Source: an uncultured Clostridia bacterium
GTDB taxonomy: Bacteria; Bacillota; Clostridia; TANB77; CAG-508
Reading direction: 5' to 3'
Length of the DNA: 64,000 nucleotides
Assembly (NCBI GenBank): GCA_934121905.1
Contig: CAKOVI010000004.1
Location: forward strand, 46,039 to 110,038
A program made the position numbers and the translations under genes. The notes under the pieces were generated by a model. It was not told the DNA's origin. It ran no database searches and worked only from the letters and a program-made list of their open reading frames with translations. Of this stretch, positions 19,762 through 42,285 are shown piece by piece (the stretch's first letter is position 1; each line of letters begins with the position of its first letter).

Positions 19762-20271
19762 ATGAAAAAGAAAATGTTAAATATTCTATTTATTATTTAT
19801 GTTGCAATTGCAATTTTTGTAACAATTTGTTTATTATCTTATAATAGGTTTAAGGTAACAGAGTTTGGAAATAAATCATTATTACTCATTACAGACGATG
19901 AAATGGCACCAGATTATAAAAAAGGAGATTTAGTTATAGTAGACAAAAAGTCTAAAATTATAACAGGAAGAAAAGCTTTTTTCTATACAACATCTGATAG
20001 AAAAATAGAAATAAAACTGGGAACAGTAGAAGCCATAAAAAATGTTTCAAATAGCGAAACAACCTATACTTTAGAAGGCGGTAGAGATATTTCTGGAGAA
20101 TACTTACTAGGACCTGTAGATACAGTAGAAATTATACCTGTAGTTGGAGGAATACTAAATGTGTTAGAATCAAAATGGGGATTCTTATTTCTTATAGTAT
20201 TGCCATCATTATTAGCTTTCGTTTATCAGATTTCTGTTGTTATAGCAGAAATAAAAAATAATGACGAATAA
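19762..20271 (+). CDS. SipW-type signal peptidase I homologue, apparently catalytically inactive
   Basis: It shares the architecture of the three active paralogues (N-terminal and C-terminal TM segments, GDLVIV box). The Ser box reads TDDEMAP instead of (T/S)xSMxP, and there is no THR(I) His box. Confidence 0.55.
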   Translation: MKKKMLNILFIIYVAIAIFVTICLLSYNRFKVTEFGNKSLLLITDDEMAPDYKKGDLVIVDKKSKIITGRKAFFYTTSDRKIEIKLGTVEAIKNVSNSETTYTLEGGRDISGEYLLGPVDTVEIIPVVGGILNVLESKWGFLFLIVLPSLLAFVYQISVVIAEIKNNDE

Positions 20272-20920
20272 AAGAAAGAGAAAAAATATGAGTTTGCTAA
20301 ACAAACAAAACAAAAAGAAATTAATTATTTTAGCTTGTATGTGTAGTATTTTAATTTTGATATATGAAATAGTACACATATATGCTATTTTTTACAGTGA
20401 AGTCACAGGAAATGTCGAATTTAAAAAAGGAGCATGGAATATTGTAATAAATGGAACAGAAATATCAAAAGGAGTTCAAAAAGATTTCGTTATTGACCAA
20501 ATTAATATTGATCAAAACGAACATGTAAAATCAGGAAAATTAGCTCCAGGATTATCAGGAAACTTTGAAATTATAATAAATCCTAAGAATACTGATGTTT
20601 CTGTTAAATATGAAATAAGTTTGAATAAAGAAAATATGAAAAATAGTAGTATTAAAATAAAATCAATCAATGAAACGGAATACAATAATGAGTTAATAAG
20701 AACTGACCAAAATACATATACGGCAATAATTCCTGTGGAAAAGATAAAACAAGGAGCAACAAATAGAATAAAAATTGAAATTGAATGGGAAAATGTAGAA
20801 ACAAATAATGAAGAAGACACAAAAGAAGGAAGTAAATATAAATCCAAATTACAAATCCCGATAACAGTAAAAGCAAGTCAATACTTAGGAGAAACAATTA
20901 TTCCATACAATGAAAACTAA
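20261..20920 (+). CDS. secreted TasA/camelysin-like protein (paralogue of 27978-28568); the start may be the ATG at 20288
   Basis: N-terminal signal ending IYA|IFYSE. Blocks AWNIVINGTEI, APGLSGNFEI and TDVSVKYEI are shared with the minus-strand paralogue. Confidence 0.55.
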   Translation: MTNKRKRKNMSLLNKQNKKKLIILACMCSILILIYEIVHIYAIFYSEVTGNVEFKKGAWNIVINGTEISKGVQKDFVIDQINIDQNEHVKSGKLAPGLSGNFEIIINPKNTDVSVKYEISLNKENMKNSSIKIKSINETEYNNELIRTDQNTYTAIIPVEKIKQGATNRIKIEIEWENVETNNEEDTKEGSKYKSKLQIPITVKASQYLGETIIPYNEN

Positions 20921-20957
20921 AGGGAAAGAATAAGTACTATATCCTTAAAAGAAAGAA

Positions 20958-21488
20958 ATGATTAAGAATATGAAAAAAACAAAAAAGATTAATGTAATTA
21001 TTGGTTATATGTTAAATATTCTTATAATAATCGTTGTTTTAATAACAATTATTGGATTATATTATATGGCACAAATAAAAATATTGAAAAAAGATTATGC
21101 AGATATGTTTGGTTATACTTTTTTTGAAGTTGCAACAGGAAGTATGGCTGATACCATAAATATTGGAGATGTAGTAGTAGTAAAAGTAAATGATGAAGTA
21201 AAAGAAAATGATATTATTGTTTATAAAGAAGAAAATAGTTTTATAACACATAGGATAATAAAAATAGATGGTCAAAATCTTATTACAAGAGGAGATGCAA
21301 ATAATAGCGAAGATAAGCCAATTAAATCAAGTCAAATCCTGGGAAAAGTAATATATATTATTCCTAAAATTGGAATATGGAGAAAAATTCTGGCATCACC
21401 AGAAATTCTAGGAATGATAATCGTTGCTATTATTTTATTAGGTATTATATTTATGTACACTTCGAAATCTGAAGATGAAAATGATTAA
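20958..21488 (+). CDS. SipW-type (ER/archaeal-like) signal peptidase I
   Basis: TGSMADT (Ser box), ITHRII (His box) and RGDANN, plus N- and C-terminal TM segments. Confidence 0.75.
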   Translation: MIKNMKKTKKINVIIGYMLNILIIIVVLITIIGLYYMAQIKILKKDYADMFGYTFFEVATGSMADTINIGDVVVVKVNDEVKENDIIVYKEENSFITHRIIKIDGQNLITRGDANNSEDKPIKSSQILGKVIYIIPKIGIWRKILASPEILGMIIVAIILLGIIFMYTSKSEDEND

Positions 21489-21505
21489 AGAAAGGAAAAC
21501 AAAGC

Positions 21506-22078
21506 TTGAACAAAAAAATAAAAAGATTATATGCAAAATTAATTATACTTATATTATGTTTATGTATATTAGTCAGAATTTTTACATTAGCATTGTCTAA
21601 ATATGAAAGTACAGCTAATTCAACAGCTGATGTTGACATTGCTTTTTACTTACTTCATGAAGATTATAAAACAATGACACTTAACCTAGACTCTTTATTT
21701 CCGAAAGATGATGTGTATGTATATGATTTTTCAATAGGCAATCAAAAAGATGAAGAACAAGCGGAAGTTGACATAGAGTATGAACTAACTATAAGAACAA
21801 CAACGAATTTACCATTAACATATAAGCTTTATATGAATGAGAAATACAATCAAAAAGATGCAAATGATATTATAAAGACAAATGAAATATATCAAGATGA
21901 AGATGGAACATATTTTAGAAAAATGACAACAGATAAAGAAGAACTTAAATATAAAGAACCTAAAACAAATACATACCAATTAGTAGTTTCATTTCCGAGC
22001 AATTATAATACAGAAAATTATCAAGACATAATTGAAGCGATAGAAATAAATGTAGATGGTAAGCAGATAATTTCATAA
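21506..22078 (+). CDS. secreted protein with SipW-type signal peptide (TTG start)
   Basis: N-terminal Lys-rich stretch and TM ending LALS|KYESTANS. The size and beta-rich composition resemble the other small locus proteins. Confidence 0.5.
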   Translation: MNKKIKRLYAKLIILILCLCILVRIFTLALSKYESTANSTADVDIAFYLLHEDYKTMTLNLDSLFPKDDVYVYDFSIGNQKDEEQAEVDIEYELTIRTTTNLPLTYKLYMNEKYNQKDANDIIKTNEIYQDEDGTYFRKMTTDKEELKYKEPKTNTYQLVVSFPSNYNTENYQDIIEAIEINVDGKQIIS

Positions 22079-22092
22079 AGAGGTGCTCAAAT

Positions 22093-23016
22093 ATGAGAAA
22101 AAACAGGAAATACAAGATAAAACAACTAATACTTTTGATATGTATTTTAATATGCACATTTTCATTTATAACTATATTTGGTAGATATATAACAAACAGT
22201 ATTAATAATTTTTTTGTTAGAAGTAAAGAATTTTATTTTTATAGTGATAAATTAGCTGAAGACGATTCTGCTGTATACCAAATTGACAATTGGTCTGGAG
22301 TTGATGACTATGTTATTACAGTTAATATGAATAGCAGAAAAAATAACTTAAAGGCGGTAGACTACGATATTGGATATGATATAAGTTATAAATGTAGTGA
22401 CAATGCAATATGTCAATTAAGCAAGACAGAAGGAATTGTATATGCAAATACAAATGCAGATTTCTTTAATTTAACAATAACACCTAACAGACAGTTAGAC
22501 ACAGGGGATAAAGTTGTTGTAGAAATAGAGGTAAATTCAACTGCAAAGTATCAAAAAAAACTTAAGGGAAAATTTACACTTGTAGTAGGAAAGGAAAAAA
22601 TAAGCTATCAAATTACAGATTCTAAACAAAATCCATATATGGAATTAAGAATCACCAATACACTATCTTACTATATGGTTAATGAAGCTTTTGGTCAATA
22701 TAGTGTTGGGGAAAAGATTGATAGTGATACATATTTAGCATTATCTGATTCAGAAAAAAAGAAATGTTATTCTGCACTTGTTACAATAGGATTTGATCCA
22801 AAAGATGTTTTATTTGATATTACAAATGAGGTTTATAAAGATGCGATAAATGTTGAAACAACAGTAGTTGATGGTAATACATATATTAAGGGATTAACAA
22901 TTTCAATTGAAGCTAGCTCAAGTGTAGATTTGAGGTTTTACAAAGTAAATGTAGCTAATGATTATACTTATCCGAATGGAAATTCATCTTCAATATTGAA
23001 AATTACAAGTAAATAG
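22093..23016 (+). CDS. secreted protein with SipW-type signal peptide
   Basis: Signal-anchor ending TIFG|RYITNS, with an AGAGGTG SD. I recognised no other family. Confidence 0.5.
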   Translation: MRKNRKYKIKQLILLICILICTFSFITIFGRYITNSINNFFVRSKEFYFYSDKLAEDDSAVYQIDNWSGVDDYVITVNMNSRKNNLKAVDYDIGYDISYKCSDNAICQLSKTEGIVYANTNADFFNLTITPNRQLDTGDKVVVEIEVNSTAKYQKKLKGKFTLVVGKEKISYQITDSKQNPYMELRITNTLSYYMVNEAFGQYSVGEKIDSDTYLALSDSEKKKCYSALVTIGFDPKDVLFDITNEVYKDAINVETTVVDGNTYIKGLTISIEASSSVDLRFYKVNVANDYTYPNGNSSSILKITSK

Positions 23017-23049
23017 CAAATATAAATACTTGAAAGGAATGTGAATAAT

Positions 23050-24048
23050 ATGACAATAAACTTAATGAGCAAGTATATAGATATAATAAAAAAACAAATA
23101 AATACATATATGAAAGCAGTATTCACAAATAAATTTAAGAAAGAATATAACGATAAATTCATAGAAAAATATATTAATACCAGATATTTTAATTTTTATG
23201 AAAATGATGAAAATAAAACAATAAGAAAGAAAATTATTGAACAATTAAAAATAACGCAAGATGATATAATATTAAACCATATTGAAGACAGAGAGTTAAT
23301 TGAGCAAATGTGTGTGTTTTTCTACTATGTATTATATTTAGACCATGTTGTTTATTATAAAGATTTGCACGAAAAGATAAACAAAACAGCGAAACTAAGG
23401 TATAAAGTGCTTGGAAAAAAGAGTGAAGAATATTCAGAAGAAATATATATCAAAATGCAAGAATTTGAAAAACAAAAGAAACAGCTAATAGAAGGTTTTG
23501 ATACCGAAGAATTTGCGATAAAACTTACAAACTATCCAGAAAAAAATAATATATATAGAGTAAATCTAACACAAAATATAAAATTTCCAAAAGAATATAG
23601 TGAATTTGCAATTAATAAAGCTTTTATGACAGGAAATGTTGGTGAAGACAGGCTTTTTGTGGAATATTATTTAGTAGTTGTACAAGTATTAAAAGACATT
23701 CTAAAACAAAATTTTAAAAGACAATATATAGTTGAATTTGCTTATACATTATTAAATAAACCAAAAAAATTAAATAATTTATTAAACATTATAAATAATT
23801 TAGCAACACAAGATAAAATCTGTTTGAAAATAAGGTATGAAGATTTTAAAAAGAAGAAAGAAGAAATATATGAACTTATGCGAGATGGATATAGGGTAGC
23901 ATTAATTATAGACAATTCATTTGAGGTGGACTATAAAAATATTGGGATGCTAAAAATGTTTAAATATATAATTATAGATAAACAATCGAAAAAATACGAT
24001 GAGATTAAAGATTACAGAAATTTATTAGAAAATGTAATAGAAATATAG
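23050..24048 (+). CDS. hypothetical cytoplasmic protein; the C-terminal half is faintly EAL-domain-like (degenerate)
   Basis: The ATG at 23050 is preferred, 11 nt after GAAAGGAA. LMRDGYRVALIIDNSFEVDYKNIGMLKMFKYIIIDK resembles the EAL block G..+A+DDFG....L..L..D.+K+D, but the catalytic residues are absent. Confidence 0.3.
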   Translation: MTINLMSKYIDIIKKQINTYMKAVFTNKFKKEYNDKFIEKYINTRYFNFYENDENKTIRKKIIEQLKITQDDIILNHIEDRELIEQMCVFFYYVLYLDHVVYYKDLHEKINKTAKLRYKVLGKKSEEYSEEIYIKMQEFEKQKKQLIEGFDTEEFAIKLTNYPEKNNIYRVNLTQNIKFPKEYSEFAINKAFMTGNVGEDRLFVEYYLVVVQVLKDILKQNFKRQYIVEFAYTLLNKPKKLNNLLNIINNLATQDKICLKIRYEDFKKKKEEIYELMRDGYRVALIIDNSFEVDYKNIGMLKMFKYIIIDKQSKKYDEIKDYRNLLENVIEI

Positions 24049-24061
24049 ACGAGGTTAAAAG

Positions 24062-25585
24062 ATGGATACATTTACAAGATTTTTATATGAATTTTTATCA
24101 CAATTCTTTTCAGGGTTTCTTACAATTTTGAAAGGATTGGGAAACGGAATTAAGCAAATTTTTGATATAAAATCATATCAAGAAATTTTAAAGTCATATC
24201 AAAGTGACTTATCTATGCCTGAATGGGTATTAGTTGGAATATCTATTTTCTGTTTGGTTGTATTAATTTTATTAATATTTGTTTTAATATATTTGTTAAT
24301 AAGAAAATATTTAAAATTTAGAAAACAAGCAATTAAACAAGATGAGCTAATGGCAGAAGTAGCTAATTTGAATGGAAAAGTAGCAAGCTTAGTAAAAGAA
24401 AAAGATGAAATTTTAGCAATGAAAGTTTCGCAATTAGGACTTAAACCAGAAGAATCTGCAGAAGAAACACCAGATGAAACTGGAGACAATTCTAATACAG
24501 ATCCGAATATAAGATTTTCAAAATTAGCACTAATTGACGAAGAATATGCAAAATATAAGCAAAAAGATTATGGTAATTCATTTACTCTTCCAGAACTTTG
24601 CGATAATTTCAGAAATTTCGCGGCATCTAAATTAGGACTATTTTATAAACCGGAAATGATGAGAATATTTATTGCTGGACTTGCATCAACAAAACTTGTA
24701 ATATTACAAGGTATTTCAGGAACTGGTAAAACATCTTTGGCATATGCGTGGGGAAAATTTATGAAACACGATTCATGTGTGGCATCTGTACAACCATCAT
24801 GGAGAGATAGAACAGATATGTTTGGGTACTTTAATGAATTTACTAAAAAGTTTAATGAAACAGAAATGCTTAAAGAAATGTATATAGCTGGATATTGTGA
24901 TGAAGTATTTACTGTTATATTAGATGAGATGAACTTATCTCGTGTTGAATATTATTTTGCAGAAATGCTATCAATTCTAGAAATGCCAAATAGAGCGGAA
25001 TGGTTAATAGAGTTGGTTCCAAATAGCTGGAAAACAGACCCTAAAAAAATAAAAGGCGGAAAGATACAAGTTCCTGCAAATATGTGGTATATAGGAACAA
25101 TTAATAATGATGATTCAACATTTGCTGTAACAGATAAGGTTTACGATAGAGCAATGCCAATAGATATAAATGATAAAGGAGTGCCATTTGAACCAATAGA
25201 TACTCCAGCACAAGATATTAATTTTTCATATTTAGATAATTTATTTGCATCAGCTATAAAAGATAACCCTATTTCACAATCAACTTTAGACAAAATAGAA
25301 CAGATGGATAACTACGTAATAGAGCATTTTAGAATAGCATTTGGTAACCGTATTGTTGCACATATGAAAAAATTTGTACCTGTATATGTAGCTTGTGGAG
25401 GAGATGAAGTTGCTGGAGTAGATTACTTTATTGCTAAAAAAATATTAAGAAAATTCGAGCAATTAAATATAGCATATATTAGAGACGAAATTGATCCATA
25501 TGTTGATTTCTTGGATAAAACATTTGGAAAAAATAAAATGAAGGAATGTATTGAATATTTATTAAGATTGAAAAAAATGTCATAA
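24062..25585 (+). CDS. membrane-anchored McrB-family AAA+ (GTPase-type) protein
   Basis: TM helix WVLVGISIFCLVVLILLIFVLIYLLI followed by a coiled coil. Walker A GISGTGKTS, Walker B VILDEMNLS, and McrB-like blocks VQPSWRDRTDMFGYF and WYIGTINNDDSTFAVTDKVYDRA. Confidence 0.65.
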   Translation: MDTFTRFLYEFLSQFFSGFLTILKGLGNGIKQIFDIKSYQEILKSYQSDLSMPEWVLVGISIFCLVVLILLIFVLIYLLIRKYLKFRKQAIKQDELMAEVANLNGKVASLVKEKDEILAMKVSQLGLKPEESAEETPDETGDNSNTDPNIRFSKLALIDEEYAKYKQKDYGNSFTLPELCDNFRNFAASKLGLFYKPEMMRIFIAGLASTKLVILQGISGTGKTSLAYAWGKFMKHDSCVASVQPSWRDRTDMFGYFNEFTKKFNETEMLKEMYIAGYCDEVFTVILDEMNLSRVEYYFAEMLSILEMPNRAEWLIELVPNSWKTDPKKIKGGKIQVPANMWYIGTINNDDSTFAVTDKVYDRAMPIDINDKGVPFEPIDTPAQDINFSYLDNLFASAIKDNPISQSTLDKIEQMDNYVIEHFRIAFGNRIVAHMKKFVPVYVACGGDEVAGVDYFIAKKILRKFEQLNIAYIRDEIDPYVDFLDKTFGKNKMKECIEYLLRLKKMS

Positions 25586-25598
25586 AGGAGATTAGAAA

Positions 25599-26753
25599 GT
25601 GGATAAGCTTGAAATTATCAATTTATATGAAAATTCAAATAAAAATAGAATAGAAGAATTTACGAGTAAAACAAATTCAACTTTAAAGGTAAATATTGAT
25701 AAAAAGAAAATGCAAAAAGATTCTGATTGGATTAAAATGATGGCATTTACTATTCCTTACTTAGACAATATATTCCATTCTCCAAATAGATTTATTGTTA
25801 ATGAAGAAGAAATAGTTAAAATTGAACAAGCCAAAAAGGTATCTGTAGAAACGATTAAGCATTTATCAAAAAATACCAATTTTATACAAACAGTAGATAA
25901 AGTGACAGGAGATGTTACACCATCTAAATTATTGAATGTAAGAAAAGAAGAAACTTATAATACATATGAAAACAGATTGATATATACATTGGTTCAAAAC
26001 ATGAAAAGATTTATAAAAAAGAAAAAGGAAAATTTAGGACAATATAAAAATGATGCAAACAAAGAAAACGATAATAGAGACAATAAATCATTTGAATATT
26101 CTGCAACTTCAACAGTAGAAGATGAGCAAATAGAAGTTAATTTATCTTTAAATTCAAAATTGAATCAAGATGCTCAAAATAAATCAAATGATATAACACA
26201 AATCATAGAAGAAATAGGTGAAATAGAAAAGAAAATACAAGGACTACAATCAACAGAAGTTTATAAAACTTTAGAAAAACAGCATGTTATAGAAGTAAGA
26301 GAGCCTATAAAAAAGACCAATGTAATACTAAAGAATGTTAATTTTCAATATGCAATGAAATTGTGGGACTATTTAAGAGATAATTTTGATGATAAAAATC
26401 TTGACTCAGTAGAGAAAAAAGATTATATGGACAACAGTGAATTAAAGAAGATGGTTGATGAAACGTTTTTGTTACACTATCTAACAATGAAAACATTGGA
26501 TGATGATATGGAGGAAAAACAAGATACAAAAGAAGAAATGCAAAATATGGTGGTTGACCAAATGATAGACAAAATGTTAGAAATAAATGAAAACTTTAGT
26601 GAAGACCAAATAAAAGATTTAATAGCAAAAAAATATGAAATTATTAAATATAAAAAGACAGCTGTTATACAAGAAATACAAAAAACATTTAAAGAACACA
26701 TAAAACAATATATGAAAAAAATTGGTAATAGAGAGGAAACAGAAGAATGTTAA
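25599..26753 (+). CDS. partner protein of the McrB-like ATPase (DUF2357/McrC-N-like block, no nuclease motif seen; GTG start)
   Basis: AAGGAG lies 7 nt upstream of the GTG. ETYNTYENRLIYTLVQNMKRFI resembles the conserved block of McrC-related partners. The C-terminal half is acidic or coiled coil. Confidence 0.4.
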   Translation: MDKLEIINLYENSNKNRIEEFTSKTNSTLKVNIDKKKMQKDSDWIKMMAFTIPYLDNIFHSPNRFIVNEEEIVKIEQAKKVSVETIKHLSKNTNFIQTVDKVTGDVTPSKLLNVRKEETYNTYENRLIYTLVQNMKRFIKKKKENLGQYKNDANKENDNRDNKSFEYSATSTVEDEQIEVNLSLNSKLNQDAQNKSNDITQIIEEIGEIEKKIQGLQSTEVYKTLEKQHVIEVREPIKKTNVILKNVNFQYAMKLWDYLRDNFDDKNLDSVEKKDYMDNSELKKMVDETFLLHYLTMKTLDDDMEEKQDTKEEMQNMVVDQMIDKMLEINENFSEDQIKDLIAKKYEIIKYKKTAVIQEIQKTFKEHIKQYMKKIGNREETEEC

Positions 26754-27325
26754 AGAAAATAAAAAAAATAAAGGAAAATAAGGCTTTAAAAATAATTGGT
26801 AATATCTTATATTTTATATTATTTTTAATAGTTGTTTTAATGCTAATTATAGTAATTATACAAAGAACATCAAATAATTCTATATCGATTGGAGGTTATA
26901 GAATATTTGCTGTTGCAACAGGAAGCATGGTACCTAAATATGAGGTAGGAGATGTGATAATATCTAAGGAAATTGAACCTAGTGAAATAAAGGTAGGAGA
27001 TACTGTTGTATATAAAGGAGAGGTTGGAGGTTTTAAAGATAAATTTGTAACTCACCAAATACAATCAATAAATAAACAAGAAGATGGAACATATAAATTT
27101 ACAACAAAGGGAATTTCAAATATAGAGGCAGATCCGGAAATCTCTGAAACTCAAGTATATGGAAAAATAATATATAAAGTGAAAACTTTAAGTCTAATAA
27201 GTAAGTTAATTTCAAATGTTTACGTATTTTACTTTTTCATATTTGTTCCAATAGCAATTATAATATATAAACAGATAAGAAATTTAATAAGGGAAGATGA
27301 AGAAGAGGATGAAGACAATAAATAA
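26747..27325 (+). CDS. SipW-type signal peptidase I
   Basis: TGSMVP (Ser box) and VTHQI (His box), with N- and C-terminal TM segments and an acidic tail. Confidence 0.7.
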   Translation: MLKKIKKIKENKALKIIGNILYFILFLIVVLMLIIVIIQRTSNNSISIGGYRIFAVATGSMVPKYEVGDVIISKEIEPSEIKVGDTVVYKGEVGGFKDKFVTHQIQSINKQEDGTYKFTTKGISNIEADPEISETQVYGKIIYKVKTLSLISKLISNVYVFYFFIFVPIAIIIYKQIRNLIREDEEEDEDNK

Positions 27326-27342: not shown

Positions 27343-27942
27343 ATGTATAAAGTATTGAAAATAATGAAAAAAATCAAAATAAGAAATTTAATAATACTAA
27401 TATTATTACTTGTTTTCAATGCTTATGCATGGTTTGTGTATACAACTAGAGTATCCCTTGACTTATCTGCACATGTCAGCTCATGGGATGTTCAATTTGT
27501 TGCAAAAGATGGAGGAATATCATCTGATATGATTATAAAAGTTGAAAATTTTTATCCTGGAATGGAAGATTTTGAAAAGATTATAGAGGTACAAAACAGA
27601 GGAGAAGTCAATGTTGAGTTAAGCTACGAAATTGAATCCGTAAGAATAATGGATGAAACTATTGAAAAAAATGACGAAACAGGGGTTACATCAGAAAGTA
27701 TTGAGGAAAAATTAAAAAACGATTATCCTTTTAAAATTAACATAGTAAAAGATGATTCAAATTTAATAACAGGTTCTGGTAATGGAAGTTTTAAAATAAC
27801 AGTTGTATGGCCATATGAATCTGGAGATGATGAGGCAGATACTAATTGGGGAAGAAAAGCATACGAGTATTATGAGAACAATCCTGATAAAGAATGCATA
27901 GAATTAAAGTTAGTGTTAAAAGCTACTCAAGCAAAAAATTAA
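27343..27942 (+). CDS. secreted TasA/camelysin-like protein
   Basis: Signal ending NAYA|WFVYTT. FYPGMEDFEKIIEVQNRGEVNVELSYEI resembles the TasA PGD...N.G block. Confidence 0.6.
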   Translation: MYKVLKIMKKIKIRNLIILILLLVFNAYAWFVYTTRVSLDLSAHVSSWDVQFVAKDGGISSDMIIKVENFYPGMEDFEKIIEVQNRGEVNVELSYEIESVRIMDETIEKNDETGVTSESIEEKLKNDYPFKINIVKDDSNLITGSGNGSFKITVVWPYESGDDEADTNWGRKAYEYYENNPDKECIELKLVLKATQAKN

Positions 27943-27977: not shown

Positions 27978-28568
27978 TTATTTTAATTGTGTAAATGAAA
28001 TATCAACATGTAAAAGAGCAGGGATATCAGAGTTAGTAGAAAGAGTATCTTCTTCGTTTGTCATAGATGAGGTTGTCTCATCATCATTCCACAATACATA
28101 AATACGAATTTTTCTTGCTGTGATTTTGCTGTCTAAAGAAATTGTTTCTGATATTGGTTCATTGAAGTTAGAAAAAGATATTTTTTCACCATTATCTATG
28201 GAATAGCCTGTTGTAACTAAGTCTCTTACAGAGCTATTTTCTGCAACAGATGTGTTGATTTCATATTTAAAAGAAACATCAGTACCAGAAAAGTCGAAAT
28301 TTAAATCGAAATACCCTTCAGCAGTTGGTGCTATTATATTGCTTGCAATATTTTCGTTACCGGGAAAGACTGGTACAATTGCTGACGATATATCTGTGTT
28401 ATTTTTTATAGATAAGTTATTTATGGAAATATTCCAATTTGCTATTTTTATTGATGCATCTCCGGTAGCGGTTGTAAGATACTTAGCATAAATTTGTATA
28501 ACAAAAAATACTAAAATACATATTAAAAAAGAAATTAATAATAATAATAATTTTTTTTGATTTTTCAT
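27978..28568 (-). CDS. secreted TasA/camelysin-like protein (paralogue of 20261-20920)
   Basis: The start is chosen at MKNQKK (AAAGAGGT SD). Signal ending IYA|KYLTTATGD. Blocks ANWNISINN, APTAEGYFDL and TDVSFKYEI are shared with its paralogue. Confidence 0.6.
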   Translation of the reverse strand: MKNQKKLLLLLISFLICILVFFVIQIYAKYLTTATGDASIKIANWNISINNLSIKNNTDISSAIVPVFPGNENIASNIIAPTAEGYFDLNFDFSGTDVSFKYEINTSVAENSSVRDLVTTGYSIDNGEKISFSNFNEPISETISLDSKITARKIRIYVLWNDDETTSSMTNEEDTLSTNSDIPALLHVDISFTQLK

Positions 28569-28652
28569 AATTAAATACCTCTTTAGGATTTTAATTTTAA
28601 CATAATAAATGTAATAAATCAAGAAAAAATCAAAAAAGGAAAGGACAAATTT

Positions 28653-38300: not shown

Positions 38301-41128
38301 ATGGAACAACTCAAACCAATATTGGTTATGATACAGTACAAGATTCTTCTTTAGAAAAAGGAGAAATACAAATAGGCGGAACTGTATTTGGCGGAGGAGA
38401 AGCAAATGAATCAGGTAGTGAAGTATATGATTTCTCATTTATAAGTGTAACAAAAGGAATTGATATTCAAATCGATGGAAATGGTTATGATAAATTTGCA
38501 ATAAAAGGAAGTATATTTGGTTCTGGAAACGCTTCTAGTACAAGTGGTGAAAGTTATATAACAATAAAAAATTATGGTACATCAGATTCGCCACAAAGTA
38601 ATATTTCAATCCAAAGAGCAAACTGTGCAACAATTAGTAATTCTGCAATTTCACTTTCTGGAGCTACTGATAGAACAAATGAGTATAAATCTGAATTTTT
38701 CTCATTAAGTAGGGTAGACCAAGTAAAATTAAAAGATAATTCTATATTATATTTATGCAATGGAGCCAACTTATTAAAAGAATTGGATAGTATAGCAGAT
38801 GTAAATGGAATAGAAGAAAAAGGTGCTGTTACAATAGATTCTGATACAGGAGAAACTACTAAAAATGTTGATAATAGAATCTATATGTTAGAAGGAAAAA
38901 ATCTAAATATAGCAACAAATGAACAAGTAACAGCATATGGAAAAGTACAAGGAATGTTCTTTTTAGGACTATTTACAAATAGAATGAATCCGAGTACAAG
39001 TACAGGATTTTATCATAGTGGATACAATAATGGAGATGCAATAACAAATGCGGGAACATTTTCATCAAACTCATATGCTATGGCACAACATATGACAGAT
39101 CATGATACATCCATAGATGGTTTTTACACAAATTACAACAAAGATGGTATAGTAAAAACAGATTATATAGATACAACTCCAAAAGATGATGTTTACTATA
39201 TTTGGCTTGTTGGGGAAAAAATGGATGTTACAGTATTTGAAATGAGTTTAACTGCATCAAAATACGCAACTTTGGGAACTTATGAATTACTATTACAAGG
39301 ATTTTCAGATCCTAATATAAAATTTGCAATTACAGGATTTTCAGCTGGACTTGCAAATGGCATATCACTTGTTAATCCAGATGAAATACCATCAATAGAA
39401 CCAGATGAGGAAAAAGCAAATTCTGTGTATGGTTTATCTATGAAAACAGGAAATATTGGTTGGAAAAACAAAGGAAGTACAGTATTTCTAACACAAGATG
39501 GTGGAAAATATACAGGAACAAATGACTATGATGCAGATAATTCGACATATACGCCAACGCTTAATTTCTGTTTTTACCACTCACAAAATATTACTAAAAA
39601 ACAGGGACTTGGGGATGTAAGAATCAGATTGCAAGTTTTAACCCCAATTGATGATTTAAATTATAAATTGTCATATATAGATATAAATATTACTTTGTCA
39701 AGTGCATTATATCAAAATGACTTTTACGAAGCGGCAATAACCCCAGGACAGGAATTTGGATTATTTACTACAACAGAAACAACAATAACAAATAAAAGTG
39801 CGTTTTCTACATATTATTCTTTGTATATAGAAGATTTCTCTCAAAGTAAATATTATGCAAACTACAAAAACTATAGTAGGGTATTAGTTTCAAGAGATAA
39901 AAATAATAGTCCATATTGTTTCCCTGTAAACACAAAACTTACTATGTTGGATATGGTAACAAACAAATATTATTATTATATTGTAACTGAGGAAGATGTA
40001 AATCAAAATAAATATGTTTACAATATATCAGATTTTACGGCTATGGGAAGTAATGATGGCAAGTATGATGAAAAATCTGCGTGTGATAATTACTATAATG
40101 CCGAAAAAGATTTAATATATGAAAATTTCATTTTTCATATTAATTTTGCTGATAGCTCGCTTGAAAATAATATAGAGCAAAATACACTATTAATGGAATT
40201 AAGAGATACAGAAAATCAAACATTGCTCGGAGTTCTTGGAATTCAAAGAGACACCATGAAATATACTGTGTATAATGGAAAAGATGCAACAATAAAATTA
40301 TCTGGAGACTTAAATCCTGAAACTCTATATCTTGGAAATACATTAAATTTGAATGTTATTACGAATTTTACACAAACAGTTGTAAATTCAAAAACAGTAT
40401 ATGATACACAATATTTTGATAAAAAATTAGGTGTAAAAATAAGTATCTATGATAACAATGGGAATAGACTAAACAGTGATAGTTTATTTGGTGTAAACTT
40501 CGAATTAGACGGTAAATTGTATTATCCAAGAGTAGAGGGTACAACTAGAATTAGCATAGCAGATAAAGTTACAGATGTTTTAGCCAGATTAAAATTGAAT
40601 ACACAAAACAATACTACATTGGCAACAGGAGATTATAAAATAAAGATAGAATCATTTGGTTCATCAGATGGAATATATTATGGACTAACAGCATCAGATA
40701 AGATTGAATTAAATGTAAGAATAATAAATTCTCAATATGGACTAAAGGTAACAACAGAAGATGAATTAAAAATAGTAGATAAAGATACTGGATTTACTTT
40801 AAATGGAAATGGAACATTTACTAGCAAAATAGAATATTCATCAGGACTATCAAATCCTAGTATTGCAGTATCATTATACAGAAGAGATTATACTGATACA
40901 TATTCTGAAAAATATAATTTAGTTGATTTAACTGATTATGTTAAAGATTATATGTCACCAACTACAAGAGAAAAGGAATATTCGGTTTCTGTTAAGCCTA
41001 CAAATGAAATAAATTACACGTTTTTACTAAAAGACCATTTGGTTTCTGGAACTTATAAATTGGTTTACAAATTATATGATGATAATACATATGTTGGCGA
41101 GGCATATGAATATATAGTAATAAAATAA
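32399..41128 (+). CDS. giant (2909 aa) secreted beta-helix repeat protein / putative adhesin
   Basis: N-terminal signal anchor (LGIKAFRDS). Dozens of (V/I)(Y/F)GG(G/S/A)N repeats lie at about 35.15-38.56 kb and resemble polymorphic-membrane-protein or parallel beta-helix repeats. Inserted lectin-like and CBM-like modules are present. No LPXTG. Confidence 0.8.
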   Translation: MKKINKKKILILIGFVIIVLLGIKAFRDSRAENVIDIESNFKDSSGLVSDETMQIKALNEGKNGISVTLPDIVNNKKIKKYIITKKDIMNDSTNEVSNNVIENLVENEVNESANVSINASQDTANNTSGETTNEDNIIEMNPGEKIYLTQEEKDNSEISFTIEYDTITVNQTVLYNKSLIAENGDKEIICLSGYMPFDTQIKVENTDISNIENQIKQSYQDCIIYGNYNIKLSTNDEDYNPKKYEQKLNIEFTVDENKKYNLLEVQDEIIQEIKDFKVDSGKIIIQTDEIKAYLILENQPKEEQINNQDEVQNDETVFSDEVLVESDDTDDSILEIDDYDSDKNYYTGLNYTENESKVNSGIYPESKLRKVTVNYYGYNYDLGKPEKQEKHNITLSATANKTDTGSVIQDWEQSDWGGWNQIYTRTDTITCTVSGLNQIREKYSDCKFSKWTAKIAVPNDNFNSYFNSDLTNSANSGISVSLENSVITVTGDSFQGLNDSSDTWSFKFKVSFKDSSDWYINNISYDSLTVNSFETLVTIGPENPYGTISDTETQAVISYKKCLPVDSSGNITMELIDNPFMNRPEGKGFNGWKTNNTKYSGSISTNTNDFVQTLKTNENNIKDSSGNYVIDLYPDWIEANIVFVSSSGSSSNDGRSESSPIYNDWNTINSKLNSNIKTCSKASNREANIVVLMNGALNISGITGPNTAYTLTSLYNGTNYGSSSTYLNVGTNNVTLDSDFQLDYIYVSSNASYSSPSGTSDGTYLISPCIYGNMYNLRVGRGIISTNDNNCAWAQIQGGYYNRSSSEFKLVIESGKYTNVQLYRAYYSNNGRYGADTGATTSTTANGILVIGNDIDRNKNNNEKLKIFNRMASRTTTSTNTPYTANNSKALTIEMVIKSGTIGVDYFNSQGTGDSSERNYAGIYVGGHGQTGYDKSDRRVIVEGGNIANIIGGLNVDESDKYKTYIYVKNGNVINITGGAGYTHTYGDRIIQVTGGCIKYSISGGSNGVAASTNTNNGQLTGNSLIYVGGDAHIGATYSIDDNGNKQISETDTSQTLYGVNAGSVCGGANGNNRYAGQTDGSYIIIDGSAVVHNNVFGGGNYGTIGSSSNNTGAEVIDLKNETSSFTTNKEYLITNSSNGGNGLKANGTSVANEAISAKSIPGDGTKWIFESANGGDYYIKNASTGSYLYMRITSAWWSTSASLELSTSNKTAFSVSGSNSKQIYYYYNGRRGTNYYISYSNGWNASTYSTNLYFLTYELKETEETKDAETLVNIKALGGTIKNNIYGGANRNSIYGTVDIAINNGNIEGVTYGGSNLEGNIMGSVLMNISGGQLGIKSDAATHDYYSTDTLFGGGLGSSTKVNGRVLININDKSGNLNIYGNVYGGSSLGTINNNVNININDIYSDTNTVSITGNVFGGGKGNDSTAALVTGNINISVDGSNLPKCNAFGGSDVNGDVNGTIYVKIGENNVSTINSVYGGGNQAAIGTETKEVKVYLLSNAVVTNAFNGGKSADLLSSSESDETRQIYLQGGTAQNIYGGSDSSGTVTVSHLYIESGNAGNVYGGNNQGGTTTITYVNIKGGIIDKVYGGGEKAETTTSNISTTGGTVNYIFGGGNQAGVTTTNINTKGGNIGSAYGGSNTSGNVNESFVNTNDSDEIQTNKKITMEIKKEVSIAQDWQKGNYTTYSTLAKLTVTIKNNTENNITKWNANITVPESVLRVNDSSADITQNNGSYNITEKNRYYGTNTIQANGSFSFTFEILTMQSVEDFGLVYSLSGKDDKGNSLSYDESRIGTVYGGNNQGGVTTTSHVTVNGGEVQNVYGGGNQAVTNETNVNINGKVAKNVFGGGNQAGVNTNTNVNLNGAIVGDNIYGGGNEGIVTGDTFVYVKNSDLSNSLYAGGNGATAVVYGNTNLYMHGTNSVTNSVFGGGNKAETGTEEKNSSKSSVNIVGAIIGKNVYGGANTSVVYGTTQTNIGYDTVQDSSLEKGEIQIGGTVFGGGEANESGSEVYDFSFISVTKGIDIQIDGNGYDKFAIKGSIFGSGNASSTSGESYITIKNYGTSDSPQSNISIQRANCATISNSAISLSGATDRTNEYKSEFFSLSRVDQVKLKDNSILYLCNGANLLKELDSIADVNGIEEKGAVTIDSDTGETTKNVDNRIYMLEGKNLNIATNEQVTAYGKVQGMFFLGLFTNRMNPSTSTGFYHSGYNNGDAITNAGTFSSNSYAMAQHMTDHDTSIDGFYTNYNKDGIVKTDYIDTTPKDDVYYIWLVGEKMDVTVFEMSLTASKYATLGTYELLLQGFSDPNIKFAITGFSAGLANGISLVNPDEIPSIEPDEEKANSVYGLSMKTGNIGWKNKGSTVFLTQDGGKYTGTNDYDADNSTYTPTLNFCFYHSQNITKKQGLGDVRIRLQVLTPIDDLNYKLSYIDINITLSSALYQNDFYEAAITPGQEFGLFTTTETTITNKSAFSTYYSLYIEDFSQSKYYANYKNYSRVLVSRDKNNSPYCFPVNTKLTMLDMVTNKYYYYIVTEEDVNQNKYVYNISDFTAMGSNDGKYDEKSACDNYYNAEKDLIYENFIFHINFADSSLENNIEQNTLLMELRDTENQTLLGVLGIQRDTMKYTVYNGKDATIKLSGDLNPETLYLGNTLNLNVITNFTQTVVNSKTVYDTQYFDKKLGVKISIYDNNGNRLNSDSLFGVNFELDGKLYYPRVEGTTRISIADKVTDVLARLKLNTQNNTTLATGDYKIKIESFGSSDGIYYGLTASDKIELNVRIINSQYGLKVTTEDELKIVDKDTGFTLNGNGTFTSKIEYSSGLSNPSIAVSLYRRDYTDTYSEKYNLVDLTDYVKDYMSPTTREKEYSVSVKPTNEINYTFLLKDHLVSGTYKLVYKLYDDNTYVGEAYEYIVIK

Positions 41129-41141
41129 GGAAAGGTAAAAT

Positions 41142-41735
41142 ATGAAATACGATATTAAATCTATAGAAAAAAGAAAAAAGAAAGAAGTAATGATAAAAAA
41201 TGTATTAAAAGTAATTTTAATTCTTTTAATATATAATATGATTTTGTTAGGCATTTCTGCTATGGATAATAATGAAAATATTAATATTTTTGGATTTAAA
41301 TCTTATATTATTACTACAAATAGCATGGAACCAAATATAAGAATGGGTGATGCGGTTATATGTAAAAAAATAAAAACGGAAGATTTAAAAGAAGGTGATG
41401 TAATAACTTTCTCCAAAGATGGAGAAAGTATTACTATCACACATCGTATTATAAAAATAGAAGATAATAACGGAAAAAAATCTTATATCACTAAAGGAGA
41501 CAATAACACTTTAGAGGATAATGAAAAAGTAGAAGATAGTCAAATAAGAGGCAAAATGGTTATTGTTATTCCTAGAATTGGAAACTTTATAAAATTATTG
41601 TCAAATAATATTATAGTTTTGATATTGATATTAGTTGTATTAATATTATGGTTTATGAAAATATTGATTAATGAAAAGAGAGAGAGTAGGAGAGAAAAAA
41701 GAAAAATTGAAGAAGCAAAAAGTAAAAAATATTAA
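41142..41735 (+). CDS. SipW-type signal peptidase I
   Basis: TNSMEP (Ser box), ITHRII (His box) and KGDNN, with N- and C-terminal TM segments and a basic tail. Confidence 0.75.
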   Translation: MKYDIKSIEKRKKKEVMIKNVLKVILILLIYNMILLGISAMDNNENINIFGFKSYIITTNSMEPNIRMGDAVICKKIKTEDLKEGDVITFSKDGESITITHRIIKIEDNNGKKSYITKGDNNTLEDNEKVEDSQIRGKMVIVIPRIGNFIKLLSNNIIVLILILVVLILWFMKILINEKRESRREKRKIEEAKSKKY

Positions 41736-42285
41736 GTTTTATAAGACTTTGAAGATTAAAAGATGTACATATAAATTAATATATATTTTATTAATGTTAA
41801 TATTTATATATAATATAATATTTTTGATAAATAGTGTTATTTTAAAAAATGAATATTTTAAATTTTCAAAAATAAATATGCTTTCTATGAATACCGATTT
41901 GATGGAAAATGATATAAGCAAAAATAGTTTAGTTATTGTCAAGAAAACTAAGAAATCGGAATTGAAAAATAATGATATTATTGCATATGAGGTTAATGGG
42001 AAAATTAGAATTAATAGATTAATTAATAAGTATAATGATGAAAATAGTGGACAAGAAGTATATTCTACGAAATCAAATCTAAATTATTATCCTGATATTG
42101 AAAATATTTCATACGAGCAAATAATAGGAAAAAAGATTATAAATATACCTTTCTTAGGTGTATTTATTAAAATTTTTCAGTCGAAAATAATTAGTTTTGT
42201 TTGTACTTTTATTTTGATATTAATGTTTATAATTAACGATTCTAAAATTAAAAGAGAAAAAAGAAACAGAAGAAGAAAAATGTAA
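41671..42285 (+). CDS. SipW-type signal peptidase homologue, probably inactive (start uncertain; the TTG at 41749 is a candidate)
   Basis: The architecture matches the active paralogues. However, the His box reads INRLI and the GD(N/A)N box reads KSNLN. Confidence 0.5.
   Translation: MKRERVGEKKEKLKKQKVKNIKFYKTLKIKRCTYKLIYILLMLIFIYNIIFLINSVILKNEYFKFSKINMLSMNTDLMENDISKNSLVIVKKTKKSELKNNDIIAYEVNGKIRINRLINKYNDENSGQEVYSTKSNLNYYPDIENISYEQIIGKKIINIPFLGVFIKIFQSKIISFVCTFILILMFIINDSKIKREKRNRRRKM

Follow-up and report, generated by a model that had tools for sequence, protein, structure and literature searches.

What does a McrB-like GTPase do in the middle of a gene cluster for secreted proteins? The question is raised by two adjacent genes in a 64,000-nucleotide stretch of low-GC DNA (GC 25-32%) from an uncultured Clostridia bacterium (contig CAKOVI010000004.1), hereafter called the window. 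The first gene encodes a 507-residue McrB-like ATPase and the second a 384-residue McrC-like partner with a DUF2357 domain, and both lie in a large cluster that also carries SipW-type signal peptidases. A first-pass annotation of the sequence had offered two explanations, a McrBC-derived motor co-opted for fibre assembly or export and a membrane-tethered McrBC-like defence module that had landed in the operon. Synteny in 81 species and two kinds of fusion to SipW strongly favour the first. We propose that the pair is probably the NTPase core of a CoCoPALM system and a fixed part of a SipW-dependent surface-fibre (pilus-like) cluster, where it would power or gate the processing and assembly of subunits. 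As part of the same joint reading, the module would derive from McrBC, would have lost DNA recognition and nuclease, and would not be a restriction enzyme.

A membrane-anchored McrB-like GTPase and its DUF2357 partner

Both open reading frames (ORFs) were found where the first-pass annotation had placed them, and all the motifs it had quoted, including TYENR in the partner, are present in the translations. The ATPase ORF (24062-25585) starts with ATG, preceded by a Shine-Dalgarno-like sequence, and its product contains GISGTGKTS, VQPSWRDRTDMFGYF, ILDEMNLS (Walker B) and WYIGTINNDD...DRA. The C-terminal 320 residues, corresponding to the NTPase core, are almost invariant across 81 homologs; the invariance of the Walker residues (Table 1) was scored in 32 diverse homologs. 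At the McrB signature, a survey of 150 family representatives gave the pattern N-x-D-[DE]-S, with D always found at position 3 and D, E, Q, G or A at position 4. This motif fits the definition of the NxD clade of McrB GTPases given by Bell et al. 2024 (PMC11090510).

Among PDB sequences, McrB chains alone were matched, whether the ATPase was used as a single sequence (E 0.001) or as a family profile (E 1.1e-5 to 2.9e-5). No grouping with a non-McrB AAA clade was observed, and the McrB-type assignment made at first pass is retained. Pfam AAA_5 (13.4 bits, cutoff 22) and the NCBIfam McrB model NF008457 (E 2.7e-4, 19.8 bits against a cutoff of 637) both score under their curated thresholds; the ATPase is therefore a divergent branch and not an equivalog of E. 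coli McrB. Judged by these sequence comparisons, its kinship with McrB is remote but specific, and it belongs to the McrB clade.

At the N-terminus of the ATPase, no DNA-binding family was matched. That place is occupied by a segment of about 55 residues, a transmembrane (TM) helix and a charged helix. In the 15 residues flanking the TM helix, K+R average 5.0 after it and 1.2 before it (81 homologs), an excess which predicts an N-out/C-in orientation with the NTPase in the cytoplasm. Hence, two elements of the first-pass description of this region, the TM helix and the missing DNA-binding domain, stand, and the third, a coiled coil, was not confirmed in the 45-residue charged helix behind the TM helix by a crude heptad scan. 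The predicted extracellular segment (residues 1-55; 24062-24226) is an amphipathic and moderately conserved helix with the pattern M.TF..F..F...F..G.

The partner gene starts with GTG, with GGAG located 8 nucleotides upstream. Its TAA stop codon (26751-26753) overlaps the ATG of a SipW-type peptidase gene at 26747 (ATGTTAA), an overlap already noticed at first pass. DUF2357, the N-terminal domain of McrC, was matched in the partner (55.2 bits) and in all 42 of the diverse partner homologs surveyed, which bears out its description as an McrC/DUF2357-like protein. Conservation peaks at residues 41-140, where K110 is invariant and the YEN(R) block lies, and at residues 225-260 (P..TN..LKN..Y..LW). 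The last 125 residues are weakly conserved, helical and rich in charged (acidic and lysine) residues. As for catalysis, none of the 42 homologs matched a nuclease family, and the conservation map shows neither a conserved D...(D/E)xK nor another acidic/lysine catalytic motif, the C-terminal half of the protein included; the first-pass remark that no PD-(D/E)xK motif could be seen agrees with this. In addition, the crude scan found heptad-like windows at residues ~126-160 and 182-215, and the Ruminococcus homologs of the partner show an unmistakable long E/R/K coil. When a profile of the 42 partners was run against PDB sequences, a designed helical bundle was the only match and McrC was not matched. 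A PADLOC scan gave no match for the partner, for the 335-residue protein X335 or for the 524-residue protein Y524, both encoded in the same cluster.

Linkage and fusion to SipW-type peptidases

The ATPase family comprises 8334 representatives of 50%-identity clusters at E<=1e-3 (761 at E<=1e-30), and relatives are found in at least 591 species-representative genomes. In all of the nearest ~60 representatives, a TM helix lies ~140-150 residues ahead of Walker A. More distant representatives of 700-870 residues are devoid of it and resemble the CnuB proteins of CoCoNuT systems. Synteny was studied in 81 species-level loci (50-100% identity), that is, the window's own species and the best 80 of the at least 591 relative-carrying genomes; these 80 loci (50-81% identity) all come from gut or rumen Bacillota metagenome-assembled genomes (MAGs). 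Linkage to SipW was scored when a SipW-like gene lay at most 6 kb away.

The partner is directly downstream of the ATPase in 81 of the 81 loci and a SipW-like gene is within 6 kb in 78 of them. The three remaining loci are L012, which is a 3.8-kb contig, L081 and L082; in L082, a neighbour still bears a SipW-type signal motif, and the pair adjoins mraW and a PBP gene. The recD2 and pyrB flanks of the window are retained in only 0-1 loci. Gene order is shuffled between clades; SipW-McrB-McrC and the paralogs of two further cluster genes, t338 and p192, remain together. With constant pairing, near-constant SipW linkage and no conservation of the housekeeping genes on either side, the pair cannot be called a stray defence module.

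Beyond these loci, a second and more divergent clade (~45% identity, ATPases of ~600 residues) was drawn from metagenomes. The pair is SipW-linked in 35 of the 46 loci with adequate flanks, and the partners carry a terminal CxxC...CxxC zinc ribbon and no nuclease motif. A divergent CoCoPALM clade (L105 and L158; for instance L105:6831-17124) displays another order: two signal proteins with a GFA[AS]W motif, a SipW-like protein of 320-340 residues, a 600-residue TM-containing McrB, a Zn-ribbon DUF2357 partner, the ATPase and permease of an ABC transporter, and a secreted protein of ~800 residues. In four other loci (L092, L093, L094 and L096), TM-containing McrB relatives of 800-870 residues are accompanied by partners of 1047-1190 residues, with no SipW nearby.

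That the module works with SipW, and not merely beside the SipW gene, is most strongly supported by two fusions. In two Ruminococcus species (L071 and L078), the McrC-like protein is continued by a ~400-residue E/R/K-rich coil and by a complete SipW with both TM segments (L071:9828-12824, 998 residues; L078:11787-14765, 992 residues; 62% identical to each other; SipW domain independent E-value 1e-50). In the sister genomes L077 and L080, SipW is a separate gene directly downstream of the McrC-like gene. The second fusion, found in at least 12 species (L051, L052, L054, L056-L062, L070 and L075), joins an active SipW to a C-terminal X335 domain. The resulting proteins have 646-756 residues and their genes end at the McrB start (for instance L057:7953-10001). 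These are two independent events that physically tie the module to the peptidase. Both are topologically coherent if the N- and C-termini of SipW are cytoplasmic, and they would put both the partner and X335 against the peptidase on its cytoplasmic side. They predict contacts of the McrC tail with the SipW N-terminus and of X335 with the SipW C-terminus.

In the window, X335 is encoded by a gene of its own, directly upstream of the ATPase gene. The protein has no Pfam or PDB match; it is likely part of the cytoplasmic module and, because it is fused to the C-terminus of SipW elsewhere, would be a cytoplasmic SipW-binding component. A degenerate EAL domain was considered for X335 and dropped, as neither a PDB profile search nor a Pfam scan of 26 members supported it.

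The candidate major fibre subunit, t338, was found in almost every locus, frequently as multiple copies. TIGR04088, the model of SipW-dependent-type signal peptides, was matched in 11 of 31 t338 homologs (best E 2.5e-5). The AlphaFold2 model of t338 (predicted local distance difference test score, pLDDT, 85; predicted template modelling score 0.82) consists of an N-terminal helix and a beta-sandwich, and the C-terminus bears a strongly conserved W.EGQD.DC.N..ASG motif. No PDB sequence was matched by the t338 profile.

Taken together, these elements suggest the following working model. The 507-residue protein is anchored by its single TM helix and, by the predicted topology, has ~55 residues outside the cell and the NxD NTPase in the cytoplasm. 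As in the canonical McrBC structures, the ATPase may form a hexameric ring into which the DUF2357 domain of the partner would insert, thereby stimulating GTP hydrolysis. By extension from the fusions seen elsewhere, the helical tail of the partner and X335 would contact the cytoplasmic N- and C-termini of the SipW-type peptidases, and through these contacts the NTPase complex would sit directly beneath the peptidase. Nucleotide-driven movements could then act as drive or as gate when subunits bearing SipW-type signal peptides are processed and passed on into the surface fibre. The substrates would be the t338 family and its paralogs, and possibly a 2909-residue secreted protein of the cluster. 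Overall, the role of the module would parallel that of the hexameric ATPase and the prepilin peptidase of type IV pili.

Known systems and competing explanations

CoCoPALM is a class named by Bell et al. 2024 (PMC11090510), who devoted one paragraph to it, gave no mechanism and deferred the matter to a later publication. These authors predict a link with pilus assembly and describe the N-terminal region of CoCoPALM GTPases as homologous to FtsB. Our literature search retrieved neither a later CoCoPALM paper nor anything on PDC-M26, a PADLOC candidate considered below. Of the features of the class, the window pair has the NxD McrB GTPase, the TM helix at its N-terminus, the McrC (DUF2357) homolog and the nearby genes of the signal-peptidase family. 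The charged helix behind the TM helix would correspond to the coiled coil described for the class, and the charged helical tail of the partner to the coiled-coil or helical extension of the McrC homolog. Nothing contradicts membership, and the pair is a member of CoCoPALM, a class that is named but uncharacterised. The first-pass judgement that either of its explanations would be unusual overstated the novelty, as precisely this architecture had already been named. Beyond PMC11090510, the present analysis adds the predicted N-out/C-in topology, the loss of the Zn ribbon from the partner in this clade and a third cytoplasmic protein, X335. Also added are the fusions of SipW to the McrC-like protein and to X335, the pseudo-peptidases and the finding that neighbouring proteins carry signal peptides of SipW type. 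Because the predicted topology of the ATPase reverses that of FtsB, the likeness to FtsB is architectural at most.

With canonical McrBC (E. coli, T. gammatolerans; 6HZ4, 6UT6, 7VSR), the pair has in common an AAA+ core of McrB type, bearing Walker A, Walker B and the asparagine/aspartate signature, and the pairing, with translational coupling, of this GTPase to a McrC homolog that contains DUF2357. In contrast to McrBC, however, it has a TM helix and not an N-terminal DNA-binding domain, NxD and not NxxD, a partner without PD-(D/E)xK nuclease, and a location in a fibre cluster and not in a defence island; matches are at E 1e-3 to 1e-5. CoCoNuT (CnuB/CnuC) belongs to the same NxD GTPase branch, and its McrC homologs are also often without an active nuclease. 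The C-terminal CxxC...CxxC zinc ribbon of CnuC is kept by the more distant SipW-linked relatives of the pair. On the other hand, CoCoNuT GTPases have 700-870 residues, long cytoplasmic coiled coils and no TM helix, features absent in the window, and CoCoNuTs are always accompanied by HEPN or other nucleases (PMC11090510), none of which is present in the window system. PDC-M26 is probably CoCoNuT.

Among fibre systems, tapA-sipW-tasA of Bacillus subtilis and the archaeal bundling pili resemble the cluster by a dedicated S26 peptidase gene of ER/archaeal type located beside secreted proteins with a TIGR04088-class signal peptide. Unlike tapA-sipW-tasA, the cluster of the window counts five peptidase paralogs, of which two are inactive, along with at least seven signal-anchor proteins and the 2909-residue protein. 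No homology of its subunits to TasA/camelysin could be detected, nor any match of fold. Type IV pili and archaella offer a functional analogy only, in that a dedicated signal peptidase and a membrane-associated hexameric NTPase occur in a fibre cluster. They are not homologous to the window system, which has a McrB-type AAA+ protein in contrast to PilB/FlaI and no PilC-like platform protein. Moreover, the window peptidase belongs to the Ser-His enzymes of family S26 and works outside the membrane, whereas that of type IV pili and archaella is an aspartic prepilin peptidase.

Several observations weigh against a fibre-cluster NTPase. Pairs without SipW occur in 11 of the 46 second-clade loci and also in L084 and L087, so that SipW linkage prevails in the wider TM-anchored family without being universal there. 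The first-pass annotation had asked whether the pair always co-occurs with SipW and TasA-like genes; this holds for SipW in 78 of the 81 loci, does not extend to the whole second clade, and was not confirmed for TasA-like genes. The t338 protein of the window scores 18.5 bits against TIGR04088, just under the curated cutoff of 19. A Foldseek search of the PDB with its AlphaFold2 model gave a lectin as best match (E 0.011), with TasA absent from the top 50, and no TasA/camelysin (Peptidase_M73) Pfam match was obtained among the cluster proteins. With neither a significant PDB neighbour nor a TasA match, the neighbours are better described as SipW-dependent secreted beta-sandwich proteins than by the first-pass term TasA-like, of which the SipW-type signal peptide is the supported part, at a borderline score; t338, as modelled, may represent a new fibre-subunit fold. 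The AlphaFold2 model of the partner, built with 23 close homologs, has a mean pLDDT of 45.8 and is unusable as regards ring insertion and tail structure, and it is consequently at the level of sequence that the partner can be said to be devoid of a nuclease fold. PDC-M26A, a defence-candidate model of PADLOC, covers the NTPase core with E 1.4e-33. Finally, the tapA-sipW-tasA fibres of Bacillus need no cytoplasmic NTPase, and since SipW/TasA-type fibres form there without one, why a motor should be required is left unexplained.

The linkage and fusion evidence would serve a regulatory switch or checkpoint equally well. A GTP-dependent gate would then license SipW activity or fibre initiation without doing mechanical work, and it might, for example, sense the cytoplasmic nucleotide state or the subunit load via the TM helix and the ectodomain. 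The two catalytically dead S26 paralogs are consistent with such a gate, as they suggest regulatory or scaffolding roles within the peptidase set. We nevertheless consider a pure switch unlikely. The data at hand fit motor and gate alike, but conservation extends over the entire NTPase core, Walker B and sensor motif included, and this speaks for genuine cycles of hydrolysis.

It is quite improbable that the pair forms a membrane-tethered defence or abortive-infection module of McrBC/CoCoNuT type, which would guard the fibre, for example against phages using it as a receptor, and would have SipW or another cluster protein as effector. Neither a nuclease nor any other recognisable effector accompanies the pair, and the PADLOC match to its NTPase core is not accompanied by one to the partner. 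The nearest non-TM relatives are 700-870-residue CoCoNuT-type proteins, and some TM-anchored pairs do sit outside SipW clusters; across the 81 species, however, the place of the pair in the fibre cluster is fixed and the flanks vary. Plasmid-borne relatives of the NTPase domain exist, yet no full-length homolog was found on plasmids or phages. In addition, the fusion partner is a housekeeping-type peptidase, and no defence genes lie beside the cluster, which is flanked by recD2, pyrBI and PFOR genes. The first-pass alternative of a defence module that had landed in the operon is therefore not supported, as the cluster persists while its flanks vary, with no nuclease and no full-length plasmid or phage copy.

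Least probable is a cell-division or positioning factor, whose FtsB-like TM-plus-helix would bring the complex to the septum or pole and do no more than position the fibre machinery there: the FtsB homology mentioned above, weak NCBIfam matches of ATPase residues 53-133 to TM-plus-long-helix proteins and the location of the L082 pair beside mraW and a PBP gene speak for it, but the ATPase is predicted N-out with helix and NTPase in the cytoplasm, the reverse of FtsB, whose coiled coil is periplasmic, no FtsB/DivIC Pfam match was obtained at E<=0.1, and the McrC-SipW and SipW-X335 fusions are left unexplained.

If the pair is, as we propose, the NTPase core of a SipW-dependent fibre cluster, it would clearly exemplify how a restriction-enzyme motor can be recruited to the biogenesis of the cell surface. 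It would also be the first NTPase on record to cooperate with a signal peptidase of type I (S26). More tentatively, gut Firmicutes might possess a third, undescribed energy-dependent Gram-positive fibre route besides sortase and type IV pili. In this doubtful but possible extension, a domesticated McrB-like AAA+ GTPase ring of restriction type, with a McrC-like shaft, would be coupled mechanically, via the membrane-spanning termini of SipW, to the cleavage and polymerisation of new beta-sandwich subunits. Carriers of the system are very common among Bacillota of the human and animal gut. The cluster takes ~22 kb, and carrier genomes are probably small (one related MAG chromosome has 1.55 Mb). 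The system therefore probably matters for colonisation or adhesion.

The cluster around the pair

The pair belongs to a single large cluster (19762-42285) that encodes five S26/SipW-type paralogs, at least seven signal-anchor proteins, two cytoplasmic proteins (335 and 524 residues) and the 2909-residue secreted protein (Table 1). Alignment of the five paralogs showed that Ser and His are intact in three of them and that the catalytic residues are replaced in two; these two are probably pseudo-peptidases with a scaffolding role. The first-pass annotation had placed the pair between SipW-type peptidase and TasA-like genes. The SipW-type peptidase genes are indeed there; the gene directly upstream, that of X335, is of neither kind. 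Other genes of the window, including the flanks of the cluster, encode PFOR subunits, recD2, pyrB/pyrI and a Mn-catalase, and are chromosomal housekeeping genes of an anaerobic Firmicute.

Table 1 Features of the cluster and of the McrB-like/McrC-like pair (window positions)
Feature	Position	Strand	Basis
S26-like pseudo-peptidase; DDEM replaces GSM, no His	19762..20271	+	weak SipW/S24 matches, alignment
Three signal-anchor proteins (219, 190, 307 aa), interleaved with the peptidase gene 20958-21488; possible minor subunits	20261..23016	+	N-terminal hydrophobic segments
SipW-type signal peptidase, catalytic residues intact (TGSM / THR / GDANN)	20958..21488	+	TIGR02228 72.6 bits, cutoff 51.85
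X335, 335-aa cytoplasmic protein, directly upstream of the ATPase gene	23041..24048	+	upstream of McrB in most loci
McrB-like NxD GTPase, 507 aa; ~55-aa N-terminal ectodomain, one TM helix, charged helical linker, NTPase	24062..25585	+	ORF, PDB and PADLOC matches
TM helix, residues ~56-80, predicted N-out/C-in	24227..24301	+	Kyte-Doolittle 19-residue mean 3.4-3.6
Walker A GISGTGKTS, residues 217-225	24710..24736	+	G217, G220, G222, K223 invariant in homologs; fits GxxGxGK[ST]
Walker B VILDEMN, residues 285-291	24914..24934	+	D288, N291 invariant; E289 >=90%; fits hhhhDE
McrB signature, NxD variant, NNDDS, residues 348-352 (sensor-1 position)	25103..25117	+	family pattern N-x-D-[DE]-S
McrC-like partner, 384 aa; DUF2357 N-domain, conserved P..TN..LKN..Y..LW block, helical tail, no nuclease	25599..26753	+	Pfam, conservation map
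DUF2357 (PF09823) match, residues 22-159, including invariant K110 and Y123-E124-N125-R126	25662..26075	+	55.2 bits against cutoff 23.3, E 7.9e-15
SipW-type signal peptidase, Ser and His intact	26747..27325	+	TIGR02228 79.8 bits, cutoff 51.85
199-aa signal-anchor protein, YAWF motif	27343..27942	+	ORF, related loci
214-aa signal-anchor protein, opposite strand; orientation conserved	27978..28622	-	ORF, related loci
p192-family gene, frameshifted at A6 run 28848-28853	28653..29376	+	one 231-264-aa ORF in other species
t338, candidate major fibre subunit, 338 aa; SipW-dependent-type signal peptide, TYAWFT motif, beta-sandwich body	29503..30519	+	TIGR04088, AlphaFold2
Y524, 524-aa cytoplasmic helical protein	30798..32372	+	kept in many loci
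2909-aa secreted giant; N-terminal signal anchor, G/N-rich repeats	32399..41128	+	homologs in 39 related loci
SipW-type signal peptidase, catalytic residues intact	41142..41735	+	Peptidase_S26 9.7e-6, alignment
S26-like pseudo-peptidase; Ser to Leu, His to Arg	41671..42285	+	Peptidase_S24 8e-5, alignment

Just upstream of t338, a promoter-like TTGACA-17-TATTAT site (29442-29470; 11 of 12 positions matched) is the best in the region. It would fit a highly expressed major subunit, a reading which is only suggestive because the scan gave 108 sites against 110.7 expected from shuffled sequence. In an NCBIfam search, TIGR04088 was not matched by the other small signal-anchor proteins or by the N-terminus of the 2909-residue protein. 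The 219-, 190- and 307-residue signal-anchor proteins are kept in related loci and have no family match.

The p192-family gene is split in the window into ORFs of 73 and ~169 residues, and the split is identical in three independent assemblies of the species (L001-L003); a pseudogene, phase variation or programmed frameshifting could each account for it. The 2909-residue protein has no Pfam domain and may be an adhesin. Its N-terminus bears the sequence GIKAFRD, reminiscent of the SipW-type motif.

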